Source: Escherichia phage ECML-10. Taken from it: 64,000 nucleotides of DNA. Shown in pieces: positions 2,689 through 48,544 of this stretch (position 1 is the stretch's first letter; the number at the start of each line of letters is the position of its first letter). Under the pieces are notes generated by a model. It was not told the DNA's origin, made no database searches, and worked only from the letters and a program-made list of their open reading frames with translations. The stretch lies in sequence record OL631479.1. One strand, written 5' to 3'. The position numbers and the translations under genes are program-made.

Positions 2689-5600
2689 TTACTTCAGTTT
2701 CTCTTGCAACCCAGTAACAACCTCTGTCAATTTTTTAACCTGCTCCTCAAGGGCGGTTATTTTATCGTCCTGTTCCCTGCAAACCTGGACAAGCAAGCCT
2801 GTTACGGCTGCGTAATCCACGCTGTAGAATCTTTCCTCTGTTATCAAAGGAGTTCCATCTTGATCAGGGTTTGGGATTTCCTTTCTTTGCACGAAAGAGC
2901 TAACTGCTTCCGGCAGCGCTTCAAGCACTTCTTGTGCTATAACACCTGCATAAGGCATACCGTTCTCTTTAAGAGTGTAAGTATAACCCTTCATCTTCCG
3001 GATAGCTTCTAACGCATCAGGAATAACAGATATGTTGTCTTTCAGGTCTCTGTCAGAGCTCTGATTGACAGATGTGCAATTCACAGCACCGTTTACAGAA
3101 AGATATCTTGATTTATCCGGCAAGGTACCGCAATGCCATACCCAATTTGCTTGAGACTCGTCAAGAACCTTAAACTCTAACACGTTTGGACGATCCCCTG
3201 TGCTGCCGTTACCCCAATAGTGCATATGGGCGGCATTAGCAGGCATGTTGCCACCGTTATTAGTAACATGGCTTCCAGAAATATATACCTTTAACTCTGA
3301 GGTCGGTATTTCCCCTTCGGGAGTTGTTCCTCCATATCTGAAGCTAACACCATTGCCACCTGTTTGGGTCCACGGGCCCCAAGTGAAGGTTTGTCTCACC
3401 ATATTACCATAACGTATAAATCTATCGCCGTGATAGGTAATATACTCTTGAACACACCCATTACCGTTATTGGCGTTATTCTGCAACACAATAAGTGTTC
3501 CAGCTTCATTTACCGGATAATGACGATCATATGTTGCATCATTATTTGCCGATTGATGGTAAATGCCTTCCCACAACCCATTATAGGTGTCAAGGTCTGA
3601 GGTACCGAGACCCTGACCCCTGTGCTGCATAGCCTTATTCCAGGGGTGGTGATTACCGCCTTCTATAGACCTGGTGTATAAGTTACTTTGTCTGCCAGCA
3701 ATCTGGAAAGCGTAGTTTCCCGAGAATCCTACAGATAAACCTCCTACAACCATGGTGTCTTGTGGACCGTTAACATTACCAGCCATTATTTTTGACGGGT
3801 TATTAGGCCCGAACTGGTTGTTCCAGTCTCCACCAGTATGACATACAAAACCACCTGGGGCTGAAAAAGTACCATCCTTATTGAAGTTGTAGAATCTATG
3901 AGCTGTGCCCACAACATCTCGAACAATAACTTGACCAGCCTCTGGAGTAGACCTGAACTCTGCTTGACCTTTAAGGCCAGCACCATTACCGCATTTAGAG
4001 GTAAACGTGCCGTTAGTTAGATCCTCTGTTCCATCTGATGCACACTGGAATCCTGCGTTAGAGAATAGCGCCTTTCTAGGACCACTGTAGCACAAATAGT
4101 CAAAACCGTCAGCCCATAGCTCTACTTTAGGCATGTTCATTTTGCTCATTATCGCATAGCGTTCAGCAGTGCCTATATAGTGCCACTGTGTGCCGCCGCC
4201 AGTGTAGAACCCAGAGGTACCTTTGAAGTCAACAATAGGTCTGGTGTTGGTATTGTTATCTCCGAGAACAGCCAGATTTAAATCTGCTGACTGGAGAGGT
4301 GCAACGAACTTAACACCGTCCTGATTGTCTGTTACAGAGCCAACCTGGTAATCTTGCTCCCTGGTAAACACCTCGACAACATTTCTACTTGCGTATATGC
4401 TGACAGGGAAAGCACGCGCCTCTGCATAGAAAGCAACATATTCTTGTTTACCCCTTGTTGGAGCAACCATCCCAAGAAGTGCTTTTTCATTCTGGTAGAA
4501 ATTTACTACCCCGTAGAAAGAGTCTCCTCTGTCTGTCCAACCACCAGTTCTATAGTGACACTGTAAGGTAGCACAGTTCATAGGGTCATTTCCAGATGAC
4601 GATCTGGTAACTATGGTAATATCAGTACCAGTTGCTGGAGCATAGTACGGATCTGTTCTAACGATGATCGGGTAGTATTTCCCATCTTCCATCCCTGCGG
4701 TTCTTGGCAGTGTTAAGAAGTCTTTCACACCTGCTGCTATAGGAACTTTGAACAGATTCTGAGCATCTGCTAGAGTTGTAGCCCCGGTGCCACCTGCGGC
4801 TTGAGGTAGAGGTTCCCACTTGGCCTTCCGGTTGTTATAAACACCCCATTCCAGAGTGCCGTTACCGGATTCGTCCATCCAGCCATCCCAGATAACCATC
4901 TTGGCGGCTTTCTTAGATCCCCAGAAGCCTCTTTCTGCTCCTGAACTACGTATCCACTCTCCAAGTCCCCAGTTTGTCAGCTGACCAGTAAGATCCCCAA
5001 CCTGCATGTATTTAGGGCAGTCTAATACACCGTCTTCGCGGAAACCCAAATATCTATGAGTTTCAGATCCTTTTGCACCTTTGTGGAGGTGGATTGTCAA
5101 CCAAGCCTTATTGTCGTTTCTTACCTCAGAGTAGATCCTATATCCATGCTCAAGGACACCGTCAGCGCTGTATTTGTCCCCGTTAACAATACCGGATGCT
5201 GACTTAACATCAGCAGAACTTTGAGACAGGTAAAGGTGCCCGAAGGTAGGAGAATTTCTAGACCCGAGACCGATGTGCGATCTAAAGGTATCATCGTTAC
5301 GAGGTCTAACCATCGGCTGCCATGCAGTCCACTGATTTGTGTTGGCCTGATAGGTTCTCAAATACCAAACATCTACGTTAGAGAATGGGTAGTATTCCTG
5401 ACGACAACCTGTACCGCCGTTAGCATTGTTCTGCCAAACAATCAAGTGACCAGCACCAGAACCTGCAGGGTAACCATTTGCCTCAGTTGCATAAGCAGTC
5501 ATCGGCTGGTAGTATACACCATCCTGATTACCAGTCAAGTTATTGATATTGAAATTTGGCTCAAGGGCTGCACGTTGCTTATAGAAAGCACCGATATTGA

Positions 5601-44712: not shown

Positions 44713-45269
44713 GAAAGAAAGCTGTCAAAGCCCCCGTTCATAGCGGGTGGCTAAAAGATTCTAAGGACATAGCCAACTTTCGAAAAGAATTGTCAGAGGA
44801 GCAGGATGGTCTTGATCCGATCTTGTGCGAGCCACTTCGTAAGCCTTGTTTAGATCATGATCATCTGACTGGTCGTTGCAGGGGTGTTTTGTCTCAGTGC
44901 ACTAATACCTTTGAGGGGTATGTGCTTAAATACTGGATGAAATACTGTAACGAGTATACAGATTGCAGTTTATCAGAGGCGTTGCGCCGGATGGCTGACT
45001 ATCTGGAGAAAGACTACAGCGACTTCCCGCTCCACAAAAACTACAGAGATGATATGACAAAGTTCTTGAGGAGATGCTCTAAAGCTACGATTATTGCACG
45101 AGCAGAATCAGATCTCAATCTTGTCATTAATCCAGAGTGCACCAAGCATGAGGCTATTGAGTCCTACATGCAGGAGTTTATAAAGAAAACTGAGGAGAGA
45201 GATTTCTATGGGGATGAAAAAGGTATTCAATCCTTGCGACTCAGTCCTGATCAGGATGAAATACCGTAA
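44664..45269 (+). CDS. Endonuclease VII-like (T4 gp49-type) resolvase
   Basis: CLDHDHLTGRCRGVLSQCTN motif; start uncertain (TTG 44664 overlapping upstream gene, no early in-frame ATG). Confidence 0.65.
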   Translation: MDRQGASGGVIAKRKIRKKAVKAPVHSGWLKDSKDIANFRKELSEEQDGLDPILCEPLRKPCLDHDHLTGRCRGVLSQCTNTFEGYVLKYWMKYCNEYTDCSLSEALRRMADYLEKDYSDFPLHKNYRDDMTKFLRRCSKATIIARAESDLNLVINPECTKHEAIESYMQEFIKKTEERDFYGDEKGIQSLRLSPDQDEIP

Positions 45270-45429
45270 CTGGAAAGGTGTTGTTGCAGATCGCTGCGTT
45301 ACTGAGCCTAATTTATGGTTTGGCTCTACAGAGTATCATAAAGAAGAGCAGTGGTTGATGCATGCCTTTGATGTAGACAAGGGCGAATATCGTGACTTCG
45401 CTTTAAAAGACATTCTTCAGTTTTACTAA
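45208..45429 (+). CDS. Hypothetical small protein
   Basis: 73 aa ORF overlapping 3' end of preceding gene in another frame. Confidence 0.2.
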   Translation: MGMKKVFNPCDSVLIRMKYRNWKGVVADRCVTEPNLWFGSTEYHKEEQWLMHAFDVDKGEYRDFALKDILQFY

Positions 45430-45441
45430 GGAATTTTGACG

Positions 45442-46425
45442 ATGATGGCAAAGTTAACTCTTGAGCAAATTTTAACACTAAAGCAGCAGGGATACACTAA
45501 TAGACAAATTGCTCGTGAATTTTTAGGCCGTGAGTCACGTGAGAGTTGGATCCGACTACAGCTTAAACGTGCACAAGAGAATATGTCAGAGATTGTAGGA
45601 GAAGCAACGGAGCGCTTCCTTGAAGAACACAAAGGAGCTAAAGTTTGGGTGTATGATACAGAAACATCACCAACAAACGGCTGGTTCTTTGGGCACTATA
45701 AGACCAACATTCAAACCTGCGGTATTGAAATTATGCCCTATATGCTAACTTTCGCAGGTAAGTGGTTAGACAGTCCTAGTGTGGTTGACTGCGCTCTTCC
45801 CGATTACAAAATGTGGGATGAGGATATTCACAATGACCTCGAATTGATTCAGGACTTGTGGTATTATCTGGATAAATGTGATGTCGCAGTAGCCCACAAT
45901 TCAGGTTTTGACTGTGGGTGGGCAAACCAACGATTTGCATTTCACGGGTTGCCTCCAACAAGCCCATACAAAGAGGTTGACACCCTTAAAATGATCAAGA
46001 AGGCATTCCGTTTGAATGCAAACACTTTGGAGTATGCATGCAAATACTTCCAACTTGCCAGACAGAAACTGATTGACCACACATTTGAAATGTGGATCAA
46101 GTGTGTTCATGGTGATCTTGAGGCGTTTAAACAGATGCGGGAGTACAATGTTGGTGATATCCTATCTCTGGAAGGCCTGTATTTGCTGGCACGCCCGTTT
46201 GCTAAGCAGCACCCCAACATGTCATTGTACTACCAGGATGAGGAGCCAAAAGTTCGTTGCCCACGCTGCGGTGGAGAACACCTTCACGAGGAAGAAGCTT
46301 TGGCGTATACTCAACTGAGTGCATTTAAAACATATCGCTGCGAAGGTTGTGGATCTGTTGTTCGTGACCGTAACAACATCCGTACCAGAGAAGAAATGAA
46401 AAACACCCTGATTCAGATAATCTAA
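45442..46425 (+). CDS. HTH / DEDD-family 3'-5' exonuclease / Zn-ribbon fusion protein
   Basis: N-terminal HTH-like LKQQGYTNRQIAREF; VWVYDTETSP, AHNSGFD, EYNVGD exonuclease motifs; C-terminal CPRCG...CEGCG. Confidence 0.5.
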   Translation: MMAKLTLEQILTLKQQGYTNRQIAREFLGRESRESWIRLQLKRAQENMSEIVGEATERFLEEHKGAKVWVYDTETSPTNGWFFGHYKTNIQTCGIEIMPYMLTFAGKWLDSPSVVDCALPDYKMWDEDIHNDLELIQDLWYYLDKCDVAVAHNSGFDCGWANQRFAFHGLPPTSPYKEVDTLKMIKKAFRLNANTLEYACKYFQLARQKLIDHTFEMWIKCVHGDLEAFKQMREYNVGDILSLEGLYLLARPFAKQHPNMSLYYQDEEPKVRCPRCGGEHLHEEEALAYTQLSAFKTYRCEGCGSVVRDRNNIRTREEMKNTLIQII

Positions 46426-46434
46426 TCAAGTATA

Positions 46435-46462
46435 GGGAGGCTTGCGCCTCCCTTTTCCTTTT
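46435..46462 (+). terminator. Rho-independent terminator
   Basis: Hairpin GGGAGGC-UUGC-GCCUCCC followed by UUUUCCUUUU. Confidence 0.5.
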
Positions 46463-46471
46463 GGAGGCACT

Positions 46472-47290
46472 TTGAGCAAGAAAGAGTCCAACGACAAATA
46501 TTACACAAACCCTGAGTATGCAGAATATCTTGTTGGTAAAGTAAAAGATAAGTATGGAAATTGTGCATACGTTGAGCCTTCTGCTGGAAGGGGTTCTTTT
46601 TCAAAACTATTTTCAGAGATACTGTCTTACGATCTAGTACCAGATCCTGAATTTGAAGGACCAACACCGTGCATTCAGGCAAACTTCTTGGAGGTGCATC
46701 CCAAGGCAGATGTCTTCATAGGTAACCCACCATTTGGCAAGAATTCATCTTTAGCTTGCAAATTCTTTAACCATTGTGCATCATTGCTAGAGCTTGGAGG
46801 GGCTATAGCCTTCATCTTGCCACGGACATTTGAAAAAATATTTTTTGCAAACAAACTGGACATGTCGATGCACCTTGTCTACAGTGAAAGGTGCCCTAAG
46901 AACTCGTTTCTACTTAATGGCAAACCTTATGACGTGCCGTGTGTTTTCCAAATTTGGGAGAAAAAGGCGTGCAACAGGGATCCTGTAGAGATTGGGGAGA
47001 ATAAGTTATTTTCTTTTAGCACTCCAGATGACTACGACTTCTGTGTAAGACGTGTTGGGTATAATGCTGGAAAAGTATTGGGGGAGGATGACCCAAAATC
47101 TGAAGAATCAACATATTTCATAAAATCTTTAGTTGACGGTGTTGACAGAGTGTTTGCTGAATGCTATTCTTCTTTTCAAGAAGAAGCAGGTAAGACTGCC
47201 GGAATGAAGAGTATAGGTAAGAAAGAACTACAATACATTTTGGAGACTAGGTATGATCAAAAGCATAGACTTGACCAAAGAACTTACTGA
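46472..47290 (+). CDS. N6-adenine DNA methyltransferase
   Basis: Motif I-like VEPSAGRGSF and motif IV NPPFG; start TTG 46472 after GGAGG (no early in-frame ATG). Confidence 0.6.
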   Translation: MSKKESNDKYYTNPEYAEYLVGKVKDKYGNCAYVEPSAGRGSFSKLFSEILSYDLVPDPEFEGPTPCIQANFLEVHPKADVFIGNPPFGKNSSLACKFFNHCASLLELGGAIAFILPRTFEKIFFANKLDMSMHLVYSERCPKNSFLLNGKPYDVPCVFQIWEKKACNRDPVEIGENKLFSFSTPDDYDFCVRRVGYNAGKVLGEDDPKSEESTYFIKSLVDGVDRVFAECYSSFQEEAGKTAGMKSIGKKELQYILETRYDQKHRLDQRTY

Positions 47291-47711
47291 TGCAAAAGCT
47301 TTTGGTGAGACAGCGGTACAAAGGGGGCAGGCGATGGGACTGGCACTACCTTTCGTATTAAAAGAGCACTTTACAGATTTTCAACTTATCAAGGGTGATA
47401 AGGGAATGCTTATCCTGGAGCATAAGTTGAGTAAGAAACGCTATAAAGTTGTTTTTAATTCTAAAGCTCCAACAAAACTGGGATTCAGAACTTACAATCT
47501 TAACCCATCCTACACTAAGGGTGTTGGAAGGGTAGAACAACAGCATTTCAGTGCCAGAGCTTCTTTAGCCCCTTTGATGCTAAATTTCTCAGGGGTGGCT
47601 TTAGGATACCTTGATAAGAAAAGAGTTCTTCATGTCCGTTTCACAGACTTTGTAACGCTTCTAGCCAACAACGAGGTTGATGAAAAGGGACGTGTAAAAA
47701 CAAACTTCTAA
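47253..47711 (+). CDS. Hypothetical protein
   Basis: 152 aa ORF overlapping end of methyltransferase gene. Confidence 0.3.
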   Translation: MIKSIDLTKELTDAKAFGETAVQRGQAMGLALPFVLKEHFTDFQLIKGDKGMLILEHKLSKKRYKVVFNSKAPTKLGFRTYNLNPSYTKGVGRVEQQHFSARASLAPLMLNFSGVALGYLDKKRVLHVRFTDFVTLLANNEVDEKGRVKTNF

Positions 47712-47738
47712 TAACGCATAGTATGATTGGAGAACGCA

Positions 47739-47930
47739 ATGACACTAAAGTTAACAATTCCAGACAGCTTTTCAGAAGACTTTATCCCAGAAATGATGGG
47801 TAAGATGCGATCATTGCTTGATCAGATCGAGGAAGCTGTTTGGGAAGACGATGCTGTAGTGGCTAACGAGCTGGTAGATAAGTGTAAAAGTATTATTGAT
47901 GCAGTTGAAGAATACCACGGAGGTTTTTGA
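47739..47930 (+). CDS. Hypothetical small acidic protein
   Basis: ATG 47739 with RBS GGAGAA. Confidence 0.25.
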   Translation: MTLKLTIPDSFSEDFIPEMMGKMRSLLDQIEEAVWEDDAVVANELVDKCKSIIDAVEEYHGGF

Positions 47931-48544
47931 TGGATATTATTGTTCTTAACGCCCCACCCAGCAGTGGTAAGGATCACATTGCAGATCTCTTGTTGGAAGC
48001 TATTCCTAACTCACACCACCGTGAGGTTAAGGAGATGCTCTTCAGTGTGGCAATTAAGGCAGCTGGTGTAACTCCTCAACTCTGGAATGCACTTTATGAC
48101 CGCCACTACAAAGAAGAGCCTTGCCCTTTCTTAATGATAGACGGCAAGCATGTTTCTCCGCGAGAATGGATGATCCATTGTAGTGAAAATCTGATTAAAC
48201 CTATCTTTGGTGAAGATGCTTTCGGTAAAGCCGCAGTCGCATCTTTGAAGAAAGATTTCCCTAAAGGTAAAGGGGTTGTTGTTTACTCCGATGGTGGATT
48301 CAAAGAGGAGCTGGCATGCCTTAGCGAGTACGCGTACAGCACAGGTGGAGATCTGTTGTTGTTCCGTATTCACCGTGTCGGATATGACTGGGGAAATGAT
48401 TCCAGAACCTATCTAAGTCTGGAAAAGAACGGAATAAAAGGAATTGAGTTCGATGTTGTAAACCCTGAAGGTGCACCTTGGGAATGTGCATCGGAGATTG
48501 TGTGCAAGTATATTGATGCTAAAGAGGCCCAAGAAGAATGTTAA
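47930..48544 (+). CDS. Putative deoxynucleoside monophosphate kinase
   Basis: N-terminal P-loop variant NAPPSSGKD resembling T4 gp1-type kinases; RBS GGAGG. Confidence 0.4.
   Translation: MDIIVLNAPPSSGKDHIADLLLEAIPNSHHREVKEMLFSVAIKAAGVTPQLWNALYDRHYKEEPCPFLMIDGKHVSPREWMIHCSENLIKPIFGEDAFGKAAVASLKKDFPKGKGVVVYSDGGFKEELACLSEYAYSTGGDLLLFRIHRVGYDWGNDSRTYLSLEKNGIKGIEFDVVNPEGAPWECASEIVCKYIDAKEAQEEC

Follow-up and report, generated by a model that had tools for sequence, protein, structure and literature searches.

A TTG-initiated predicted N6-adenine methyltransferase gene of Escherichia phage ECML-10 shares a compact cassette with a relative of Type II restriction endonucleases

Introduction

The 64,000-nucleotide stretch of Escherichia phage ECML-10 analysed here (record OL631479.1; hereafter the window) contains, on its plus strand at 46472–47290, an open reading frame (ORF) for a 272-amino-acid protein which starts with TTG close behind a terminator-like hairpin and carries motifs of an N6-adenine methyltransferase (MTase). 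A first-pass annotation, made from the letters alone, proposed that the product modifies DNA as a protection against host restriction and that its start context keeps expression low and regulated. The locus therefore raises the question of whether this ORF is a real gene with the start assigned to it, what its product methylates, and what role a weakly started MTase would have in a virulent phage.

We find that the ORF is a real gene, that its start is correct and that it belongs to the Type II-type gamma-class N6-adenine MTases, a kind already known. The gene call is not new, as GenBank already carries the exact coding sequence (CDS): 46472–47290 is annotated identically in the records of phages ime, CarlMeissner, EdH4, rV5 and Murica, most commonly as 'putative DNA N6-adenine methyltransferase'. 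What makes the locus of further interest is its conserved weak start, together with a partner gene that appears to derive from a restriction endonuclease (REase). Our preferred reading, to which we give a probability of roughly 0.68, is that a functional MTase of restriction-modification (R-M) origin and a non-cutting partner form a cassette with low MTase output and a narrow protective benefit.

Results

The ORF encodes an intact predicted MTase of the gamma class

The predicted protein has the motif order of gamma-class S-adenosylmethionine (SAM)-dependent N6-adenine MTases, namely motif X (DKYYT, residues 8–12, 46493–46507), motif I, the SAM loop (EPSAGRGSF, residues 35–43, 46574–46600), an acidic residue (Asp54, 46631–46633) and motif IV (GNPPFG, residues 84–89, 46721–46738), and these motifs are invariant or nearly so in 49 homologues. 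EPSAGRGSF and NPPFG are the two motifs on which the first-pass annotation had based its assignment, and both are present. Every residue that is invariant among the 49 homologues is present, both in the N-terminal part (E35, P36, G39, G41, F43, D54 and G84-N-P-P-F-G89) and in the C-terminal part (R194, G196, G200, G244, S247 and E252). The AlphaFold model (predicted local distance difference test, pLDDT, 93.2) has a class I Rossmann-like MTase fold followed, from near 46964, by a C-terminal subdomain of about 100 amino acids with strands at residues 180–219 and helices at 224–270.

In a fold search the model superposed on solved members of this fold, the longest structural alignments being those to M.BseCI, MmeI, CamA and M.TaqI. 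These enzymes (MmeI through its MTase domain) are gamma-class 'group 2' N6-adenine DNA MTases with solved structures, to which the phage protein shows only 14–21% identity and TM-scores of 0.4–0.5. Enzymes of the M.TaqI type have 380–560 amino acids or more and a large separate target-recognition domain, in contrast to the roughly 100 C-terminal residues of the phage MTase, which gave no match to TaqI_C or Methylase_S; a single-sequence search of the PDB with the MTase also found no match. The complete set of invariant residues, the confident model and the alignments to DNA MTases together support an intact amino-MTase of the N6-adenine (NPPF) type, in agreement with the identity first proposed.

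At the profile level, the protein matches PHROG 5172 (E = 1.5e-129) and the PADLOC Type II MTase models MTase_II PDLC03255 (E = 1.3e-33, residues 8–253 aligned to positions 2–249 of a 269-position profile) and PDLC03256 (E = 4e-25). A word-indexed search returned 791 homologues; an exhaustive one, counted in clusters at 50% identity, gave 1,582 with E ≤ 1e-30 and 5,481 with E ≤ 1e-3. Family members are 250–290 amino acids long, are spread over bacteria, phages and metagenome-assembled genomes (MAGs) of giant viruses, and are labelled inconsistently in databases, as DNA methylase, RNA methylase, SAM-dependent methyltransferase or unknown.

Homologues are linked to restriction enzymes

We gathered 80 bacterial loci (228 GTDB species matches) and 80 viral loci (more than 543 IMG/VR matches, many of them from giant-virus MAGs) and clustered the neighbouring ORFs into families. 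A small ORF lies directly adjacent to the MTase gene in 77 of 167 related loci, with a median gap of 10–22 nucleotides (nt). Neighbours of cluster 0 (about 210 amino acids; 42 loci, 14 bacterial and 28 viral) match the PADLOC model REase_II PDLC03460 (7.7e-11) and those of cluster 1 (about 163 amino acids; 16 loci) match REase_II PDLC03550 (2e-12), so that 58 loci have REase_II-type neighbours; six more have neighbours of about 290 amino acids with an invariant PD...ExK signature (cluster 10). Cluster 11 (about 220 amino acids, six loci) gave no PADLOC match for the one member scanned, and seven loci carry a neighbour of about 140 amino acids of the type found in the window.

The proteins matching PADLOC REase models are encoded 2–27 nt from the MTase homologues or are fused to them, and the fusions occur in both orders (MTase followed by cluster 0, cluster 0 followed by MTase, and cluster 1 followed by MTase). 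Members of the MTase family are also fused to N6_N4_Mtase and to Eco57I plus N6_Mtase domains. Judged by these neighbourhoods, the family is the MTase half of Type II R-M systems. Because homologues adjoin or fuse to REase families and DNA MTase domains, the substrate is very probably DNA rather than RNA.

We also examined palindrome statistics as a route to the target site of the MTase. The most depleted 4-bp palindromes over the whole window are GTAC (observed/expected 0.51, z −6.9) and CTAG (observed/expected 0.58); GATC and TTAA occur at expectation, AGCT slightly above it, and several GC-rich 6-bp palindromes are absent. This candidate route was rejected, as depletion of GTAC and CTAG does not identify the site.

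Hairpin, ribosome-binding site and TTG start are parts of one cassette

The hairpin, the GGAGG-N4-TTG start, the MTase gene and the partner gene downstream form a single 1.28-kb cassette at 46434–47711. Nucleotide homology between the window and three other copies (loci L178–L180) extends exactly from 46434, the first base of the hairpin, to 47711, the end of the partner stop codon. The exonuclease gene upstream and the genes downstream in the window are not shared with these loci, in which the cassette is located after divergently transcribed RNA-ligase genes. As the homology starts at 46434, the hairpin is, from the alignment, part of the mobile unit and belongs to the cassette and is more than the end of the upstream gene; it is degenerate in the L178–L180 copies. 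The order of the two genes is reversed in phage phAPEC8 and in a Vibrio phage. Ratios of nonsynonymous to synonymous substitution (dN/dS) are 0.04–0.08 for the MTase and 0.03–0.07 for the partner, and such low values, a mark of strong purifying selection, mean that both proteins are maintained.

The hairpin and its T-rich tract (46434–46462, plus strand) constitute the 5' edge of the cassette. The arms, at 46434–46441 and 46446–46453, pair over 8 bp, six of them G-C, around the loop TTGC (46442–46445); the sequence reads AGGGAGGC-TTGC-GCCTCCCT (46434–46453) followed by TTTCCTTTT, with the T-rich tract at 46454–46462. This GC-rich stem-loop with a T-tract directly after it has the form of a Rho-independent terminator, and this hairpin (−15.2 to −15.7 kcal/mol when folded alone) was the top terminator-like site on the plus strand between 44 and 50 kb. 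The stem is invariant in seven vequintaviruses, with a loop of either TTGC or its inverse GCAA. The latter occurs in phages BP9 and D1 (L174 and L177) on an unchanged stem, which looks like an inversion of the loop within the palindrome.

The Shine-Dalgarno (SD) sequence GGAGG (46463–46467, plus strand) is separated by 4 nt from the TTG at 46472–46474, and the ORF ends with the stop codon at 47288–47290; its first in-frame ATG is codon 131 (46862). Both the hairpin directly upstream and the missing early ATG had been pointed out by the first-pass annotation, and conservation and existing records now back the TTG as the start. GGAGG and TTG are invariant among the vequintaviruses compared, the N-termini of homologues (MSKK...) line up with MTase residue 1, GGAGG is the ribosome-binding site (RBS) in the Murica record, and terminator and RBS are annotated in both the EdH4 and Murica records. 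The cassette copies L178 and L180 (84–86% amino acid identity; synonymous divergence, dS, 1.2 to >2) retain GGAGG-N4-TTG, with the codons after the TTG synonymously changed and the TTG itself kept. The phAPEC8 homologue (54% identity) has AGGAGG-acta-TTG, again with a 4-nt spacer, and the Vibrio phage homologue (42% identity) starts with GTG. In a set of 152 related loci, an ATG occurs close to the conserved DxFYT motif in 94, and in 26 the interval from the upstream stop to this motif contains no in-frame ATG at all; among viral loci at least 42% identical to the MTase, 11 of 18 are obligately non-ATG (10 TTG, one GTG). By these comparisons, the weak start has been conserved within this phage lineage but is not general to the MTase family.

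The 18 nt between hairpin and TTG leave no room for a promoter, so the MTase mRNA must arise by read-through of the terminator. Together with the TTG codon and the short 4-nt SD spacer, such read-through argues for a low MTase output, and the low expression first proposed is plausible, since start and spacer are retained at dS above 1 and in phAPEC8. Retention of the TTG suggests selection for a low MTase dosage.

Other arrangements at the 5' end were considered and set aside. The upstream TTG at 46442 was rejected as a start because its position is within the hairpin loop and the codon is absent from BP9 and D1, whose loop has the inverse sequence GCAA. Sequestration of the SD by the 3' arm of the hairpin is not favoured, with the alternative pairing at −10.2 kcal/mol compared with −15.7 for the hairpin. 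An Rfam scan of 45000–48500 gave nothing above threshold. The conserved TTG has led to recurrent mis-annotation: the gene is started at M133 in VB-EcoM-WM, at the loop TTG in S127 BCL3 and 22 codons late in the Vibrio phage CDS. As a separate case, Sphingomonas homologues (L016–L021, L012–L013) have no ATG near the N-terminal motif, only ATGs 17–57 codons upstream, implying that the proteins are extended at the N-terminus or that their starts go unrecognised; their synteny is lineage-specific, with no recognised nuclease partner.

The partner is a remote relative of Type II restriction endonucleases

The partner gene (47253–47711, plus strand; 152 amino acids, PHROG 9938) forms the 3' edge of the cassette. 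It overlaps the MTase ORF by 38 nt and starts with ATG behind a GGAG RBS (47242–47245, plus strand), which lies within the MTase 3' end and is conserved in the cassette alignment. Its homologues in other phages, at 25–30% identity, are encoded directly upstream of the MTase in phAPEC8 (gp077), Vibrio phage IBT_VpB-34 and two metagenomic phages (L094 and L106), with gaps of −7 to +10 nt.

Pairwise BLASTP of the window partner against the bacterial neighbours was negative, and homology emerged only with profiles: hhalign matched the partner to cluster 1, the REase_II PDLC03550 family, at 95.3%, and at 96.5% with a deeper alignment (E = 9e-10, 110 columns), and found no relation to the cluster-0 REase family. 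Partner and cluster 1 have in common a PSxxxGxGR motif, which reads PSYTKGVGR in the window. The partner model (pLDDT 86.6) has a helix at 25–39, strands at 43–47, 53–57 and 63–68, a helix at 101–111 and a strand at 114–120, which is the alpha-beta-beta-beta-alpha-beta order of the PD-(D/E)xK nuclease core. In a neighbour-joining tree of 143 family MTases, the seven with a partner of the window type form one block nested among cluster-1-linked MTases, which fits descent of the partner from a cluster-1-type endonuclease within the same cassette.

Despite this core topology, the partner has no canonical D...(D/E)xK. In the alignment the invariant Asp of cluster 1 is replaced by Leu, (D/E)xK by Lys-Val-Val and the helix Glu by Pro; across the partner family the catalytic columns read K/R-V-x, the changes E to K and K to V giving a YKV motif. 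None of 20 partner homologues matched a PADLOC REase model, and searches of Pfam, NCBIfam and PDB sequences with the partner and neighbour proteins gave no informative match. Nuclease activity has probably been lost, which would make the partner a non-cutting protein.

It could instead be that the cassette is a complete and active phage-borne Type II R-M system, in which the partner, an endonuclease with a non-canonical active site, cuts unmethylated DNA of the host or of competitor phages and the MTase protects the phage genome. We regard this as unlikely, although it draws on the partner's homology to an REase_II family and matching core topology, on its strong purifying selection and on its constant co-travel with the MTase. 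Viruses do carry MTase-REase pairs, as seen in the 28 viral loci with an intact cluster-0 REase and in viral loci with cluster-1 REases. Variants of the PD-(D/E)xK fold with relocated catalytic residues are known, for instance Cfr10I and BamHI, and the partner family has conserved polar residues (E/D56, K65, D82 and K89). Against an active enzyme stand the loss of all three catalytic positions described above, the uniformly negative REase scans, and position 82, where the near-invariant Asp of the partner family is Asn in this phage. In addition, a weakly translated MTase upstream of a better-started nuclease would endanger the phage's own DNA.

Two signals inside the MTase ORF may concern the partner. 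A promoter scan found a candidate sigma-70-like promoter at 47142–47170 on the plus strand (TTGACA, 17-nt spacer, TGcTATTCT), with 10 of 12 matches and an extended −10, about 85 nt upstream of the partner ATG; its −35 hexamer is invariant in five cassette copies and its −10 is weakened in L178 and L179. Synonymous change is suppressed at 47162–47221 (plus strand), a stretch that contains the palindrome CTTCTT-TTCA-AGAAG and in which identity at third codon positions to L178 and L180 is 0.90 and 0.87, compared with 0.59 gene-wide. Promoter and frozen stretch hint at a separate transcript or leader for the partner. Downstream, L178 and L180 have a strong terminator-like hairpin with a T-run after the partner stop (around 3460–3510 of those loci); no equivalent was seen after the window partner in the short stretch read.

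An RNA substrate or an orphan MTase is improbable at this locus

The motifs L(D/E)Q(F/Y)xT and NPPFG are common to the MTase and to Ta1320 and METTL5, which were its top profile-to-PDB matches (E = 4.7e-4 and 0.045), and the product could thus be a METTL5-like (COG2263) enzyme that methylates rRNA, tRNA or mRNA during infection, and not DNA. Some homologues are labelled 'predicted RNA methylase', the record of phage BP9 says 'RNA methylase', one homologue matches RrnaAD, and many have weak precomputed matches to the Pfam family Mtase_EDM2 (PF26055). We nevertheless hold this to be very improbable, since the METTL5-type matches are confined to some 150 residues of Rossmann core, while the whole protein, C-terminal subdomain included, superposes only on DNA MTases and matches a PADLOC Type II MTase over its full length, and its homologues adjoin or fuse to REase families and DNA MTase domains. 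METTL5, Ta1320 and PH1948 are single-domain proteins of about 200 amino acids with no C-terminal subdomain and no nuclease linkage, unlike the phage MTase despite its NPPFG; according to PDB entry titles, METTL5-type enzymes act on 18S rRNA together with TRMT112.

The likeness of the phage MTase to the MTase-like domain of plant EDM2 consists in the weak PF26055 matches of its homologues, and no paper mentioning this family was found. EDM2 is a chromatin protein of eukaryotes for which, to our knowledge, no enzymatic activity has been proven. Many homologues lie on giant-virus MAG contigs (IMG/VR loci L112–L170), often with a cluster-0 or cluster-11 partner, and together with the weak Mtase_EDM2 matches they raise the question whether the plant domain arrived by way of viruses.

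Orphan MTases are common in phages. A stand-alone anti-restriction MTase with an unrelated ORF downstream, which would suit its place in a replication and nucleotide-metabolism module and the 90 of 167 related loci that have no recognised partner, can be dismissed as highly improbable here, since the partner is co-inherited in Vequintavirus, Phapecoctavirus, a Vibrio phage and metagenomic phages despite changed gene order and 25–30% identity, MTase and partner alone are common to the window and L178–L180, and Vequintavirinae are exceptionally R-M-sensitive (PMC8594841).

Discussion

On our preferred reading, a functional MTase with a non-cutting partner, the MTase would most likely methylate one short specific sequence in double-stranded DNA. 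Its active site would be formed by the N-terminal helix with DKYYT, the SAM loop EPSAGRGSF, Asp54 and the NPPF catalytic loop, and the C-terminal subdomain of about 100 amino acids would serve as a compact target-recognition region. MTase output would be held low in three ways, by hairpin read-through, the TTG start and the short SD spacer, and the partner would be expressed from its own ATG and GGAG, possibly with the help of the internal promoter. The partner itself would descend from the cognate Type II REase, with the fold and the PSxxxGxGR loop kept and the catalytic D...(D/E)xK replaced. Marking of the recognition site on phage DNA would then confer immunity to the cognate REases that related cassettes encode in hosts or in competing phages.

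Several points weigh against this reading. The MTase scored below the cutoff with Pfam Eco57I (PF07669; 16.0 bits, cutoff 25.3) and MTS (PF05175; 13.8 bits, cutoff 23), an NCBIfam scan gave no match, and PHROG 5172 is labelled 'unknown function'. The PADLOC labels that link the family to R-M systems are themselves largely predictions, and no partner family was recognised in 90 of the 167 loci. Loss of nuclease activity was read from alignments of only 13–20 sequences, and the polar residues that the partner keeps (E/D56, K65, D82, here Asn, and K89) could form a non-canonical active site. Our literature search turned up neither methylomes nor restriction digests nor activity measurements for this gene, and no methylation or activity data for any member of the MTase family.

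Among known systems, the Type II pairs modelled in PADLOC (PDLC03255 or PDLC03256 with PDLC03550 or PDLC03460) come close: the MTase matches full-length and the partner is distantly homologous to the PDLC03550-type family. The cassette differs from them in that its partner has no D...(D/E)xK and matches no REase model, and in being carried by a virulent phage. As a small virus-encoded adenine MTase, the protein also resembles T4 Dam and the MTases of chlorovirus R-M systems. T4 Dam, unlike the phage MTase, belongs to the alpha class, carries the motif DPPY and is not paired with a nuclease-like protein; chloroviruses carry pairs of MTase and endonuclease in which the endonuclease is active.

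What the cassette does for the phage is narrower than was first proposed. The DNA half of that proposal, modification of DNA, gains from the R-M partners and fusions of the family, which make DNA the probable substrate. A general protection against host restriction does not stand, because Vequintavirinae were found in the BASEL study to be 'exceptionally susceptible' to R-M systems, apparently without effective protection (PMC8594841). A narrow protection against cognate enzymes is possible.

A more tentative extension, for which we would not claim even odds, is that the cassette is a domesticated Type II R-M module in which the partner has become a new kind of MTase accessory protein. An ex-nuclease could act as a sequence-specific DNA binder which directs, gates or senses methylation at the shared site, or it could occupy that site and block cognate nucleases. 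The internal promoter and the constrained leader within the MTase ORF might in that case set the ratio of the two proteins.

These results allow a large uncharacterised MTase family to be read as Type II R-M MTases which very probably act on DNA, and they place a compact MTase and probable ex-nuclease cassette in widely used phages (rV5, phAPEC8 and the BASEL phages). If the partner is indeed a non-cutting REase descendant, the locus would offer a tractable case of how a virulent phage domesticates R-M genes.

Locus context and additional observations

The window comes from a virulent, rV5-like coliphage, a Vequintavirus. Phages EdH4, HdK5, ime and CarlMeissner match the 3.2 kb that surround the MTase ORF at 99.9% identity, and of 120 phage records that matched this query, 117 cover 80% of it or more. 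All genes of the locus are on the plus strand, in a block for replication and nucleotide metabolism. An EndoVII-like nuclease gene comes first, followed by a DnaQ-like exonuclease gene (45442–46425), the MTase and partner genes, an ORF for 67 amino acids 15 nt past the partner (47727–47930; PHROG 7393, unknown function) and then the genes for dNMP kinase, 5'(3')-deoxyribonucleotidase and ThyX.

A search of plasmids and E. coli genomes for annotated homologues yielded nothing beyond hypothetical proteins and one mislabelled phage genome. The PLSDB entry CP057073.1, a 137,565-bp E. coli 'plasmid' whose MTase is 98.9% identical at the amino acid level, is probably a vequintavirus genome. A MAG contig assigned to 'Proteobacteria' (L010, JAEZZU010000159.1) carries DNA of a phAPEC8-like phage, in which the partner protein is identical. 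About 20 GenBank records of 'Campylobacter phage' (MG0656xx, e.g. L177) are 95–99% identical to E. coli vequintaviruses; one of them, MG065646, is flagged UNVERIFIED, and the host assignment is probably wrong or the result of contamination. In phages Alma (OV101294) and V18 (KY683736) the MTase matches in two pieces, which suggests a frameshift due either to sequencing error or to a pseudogene.

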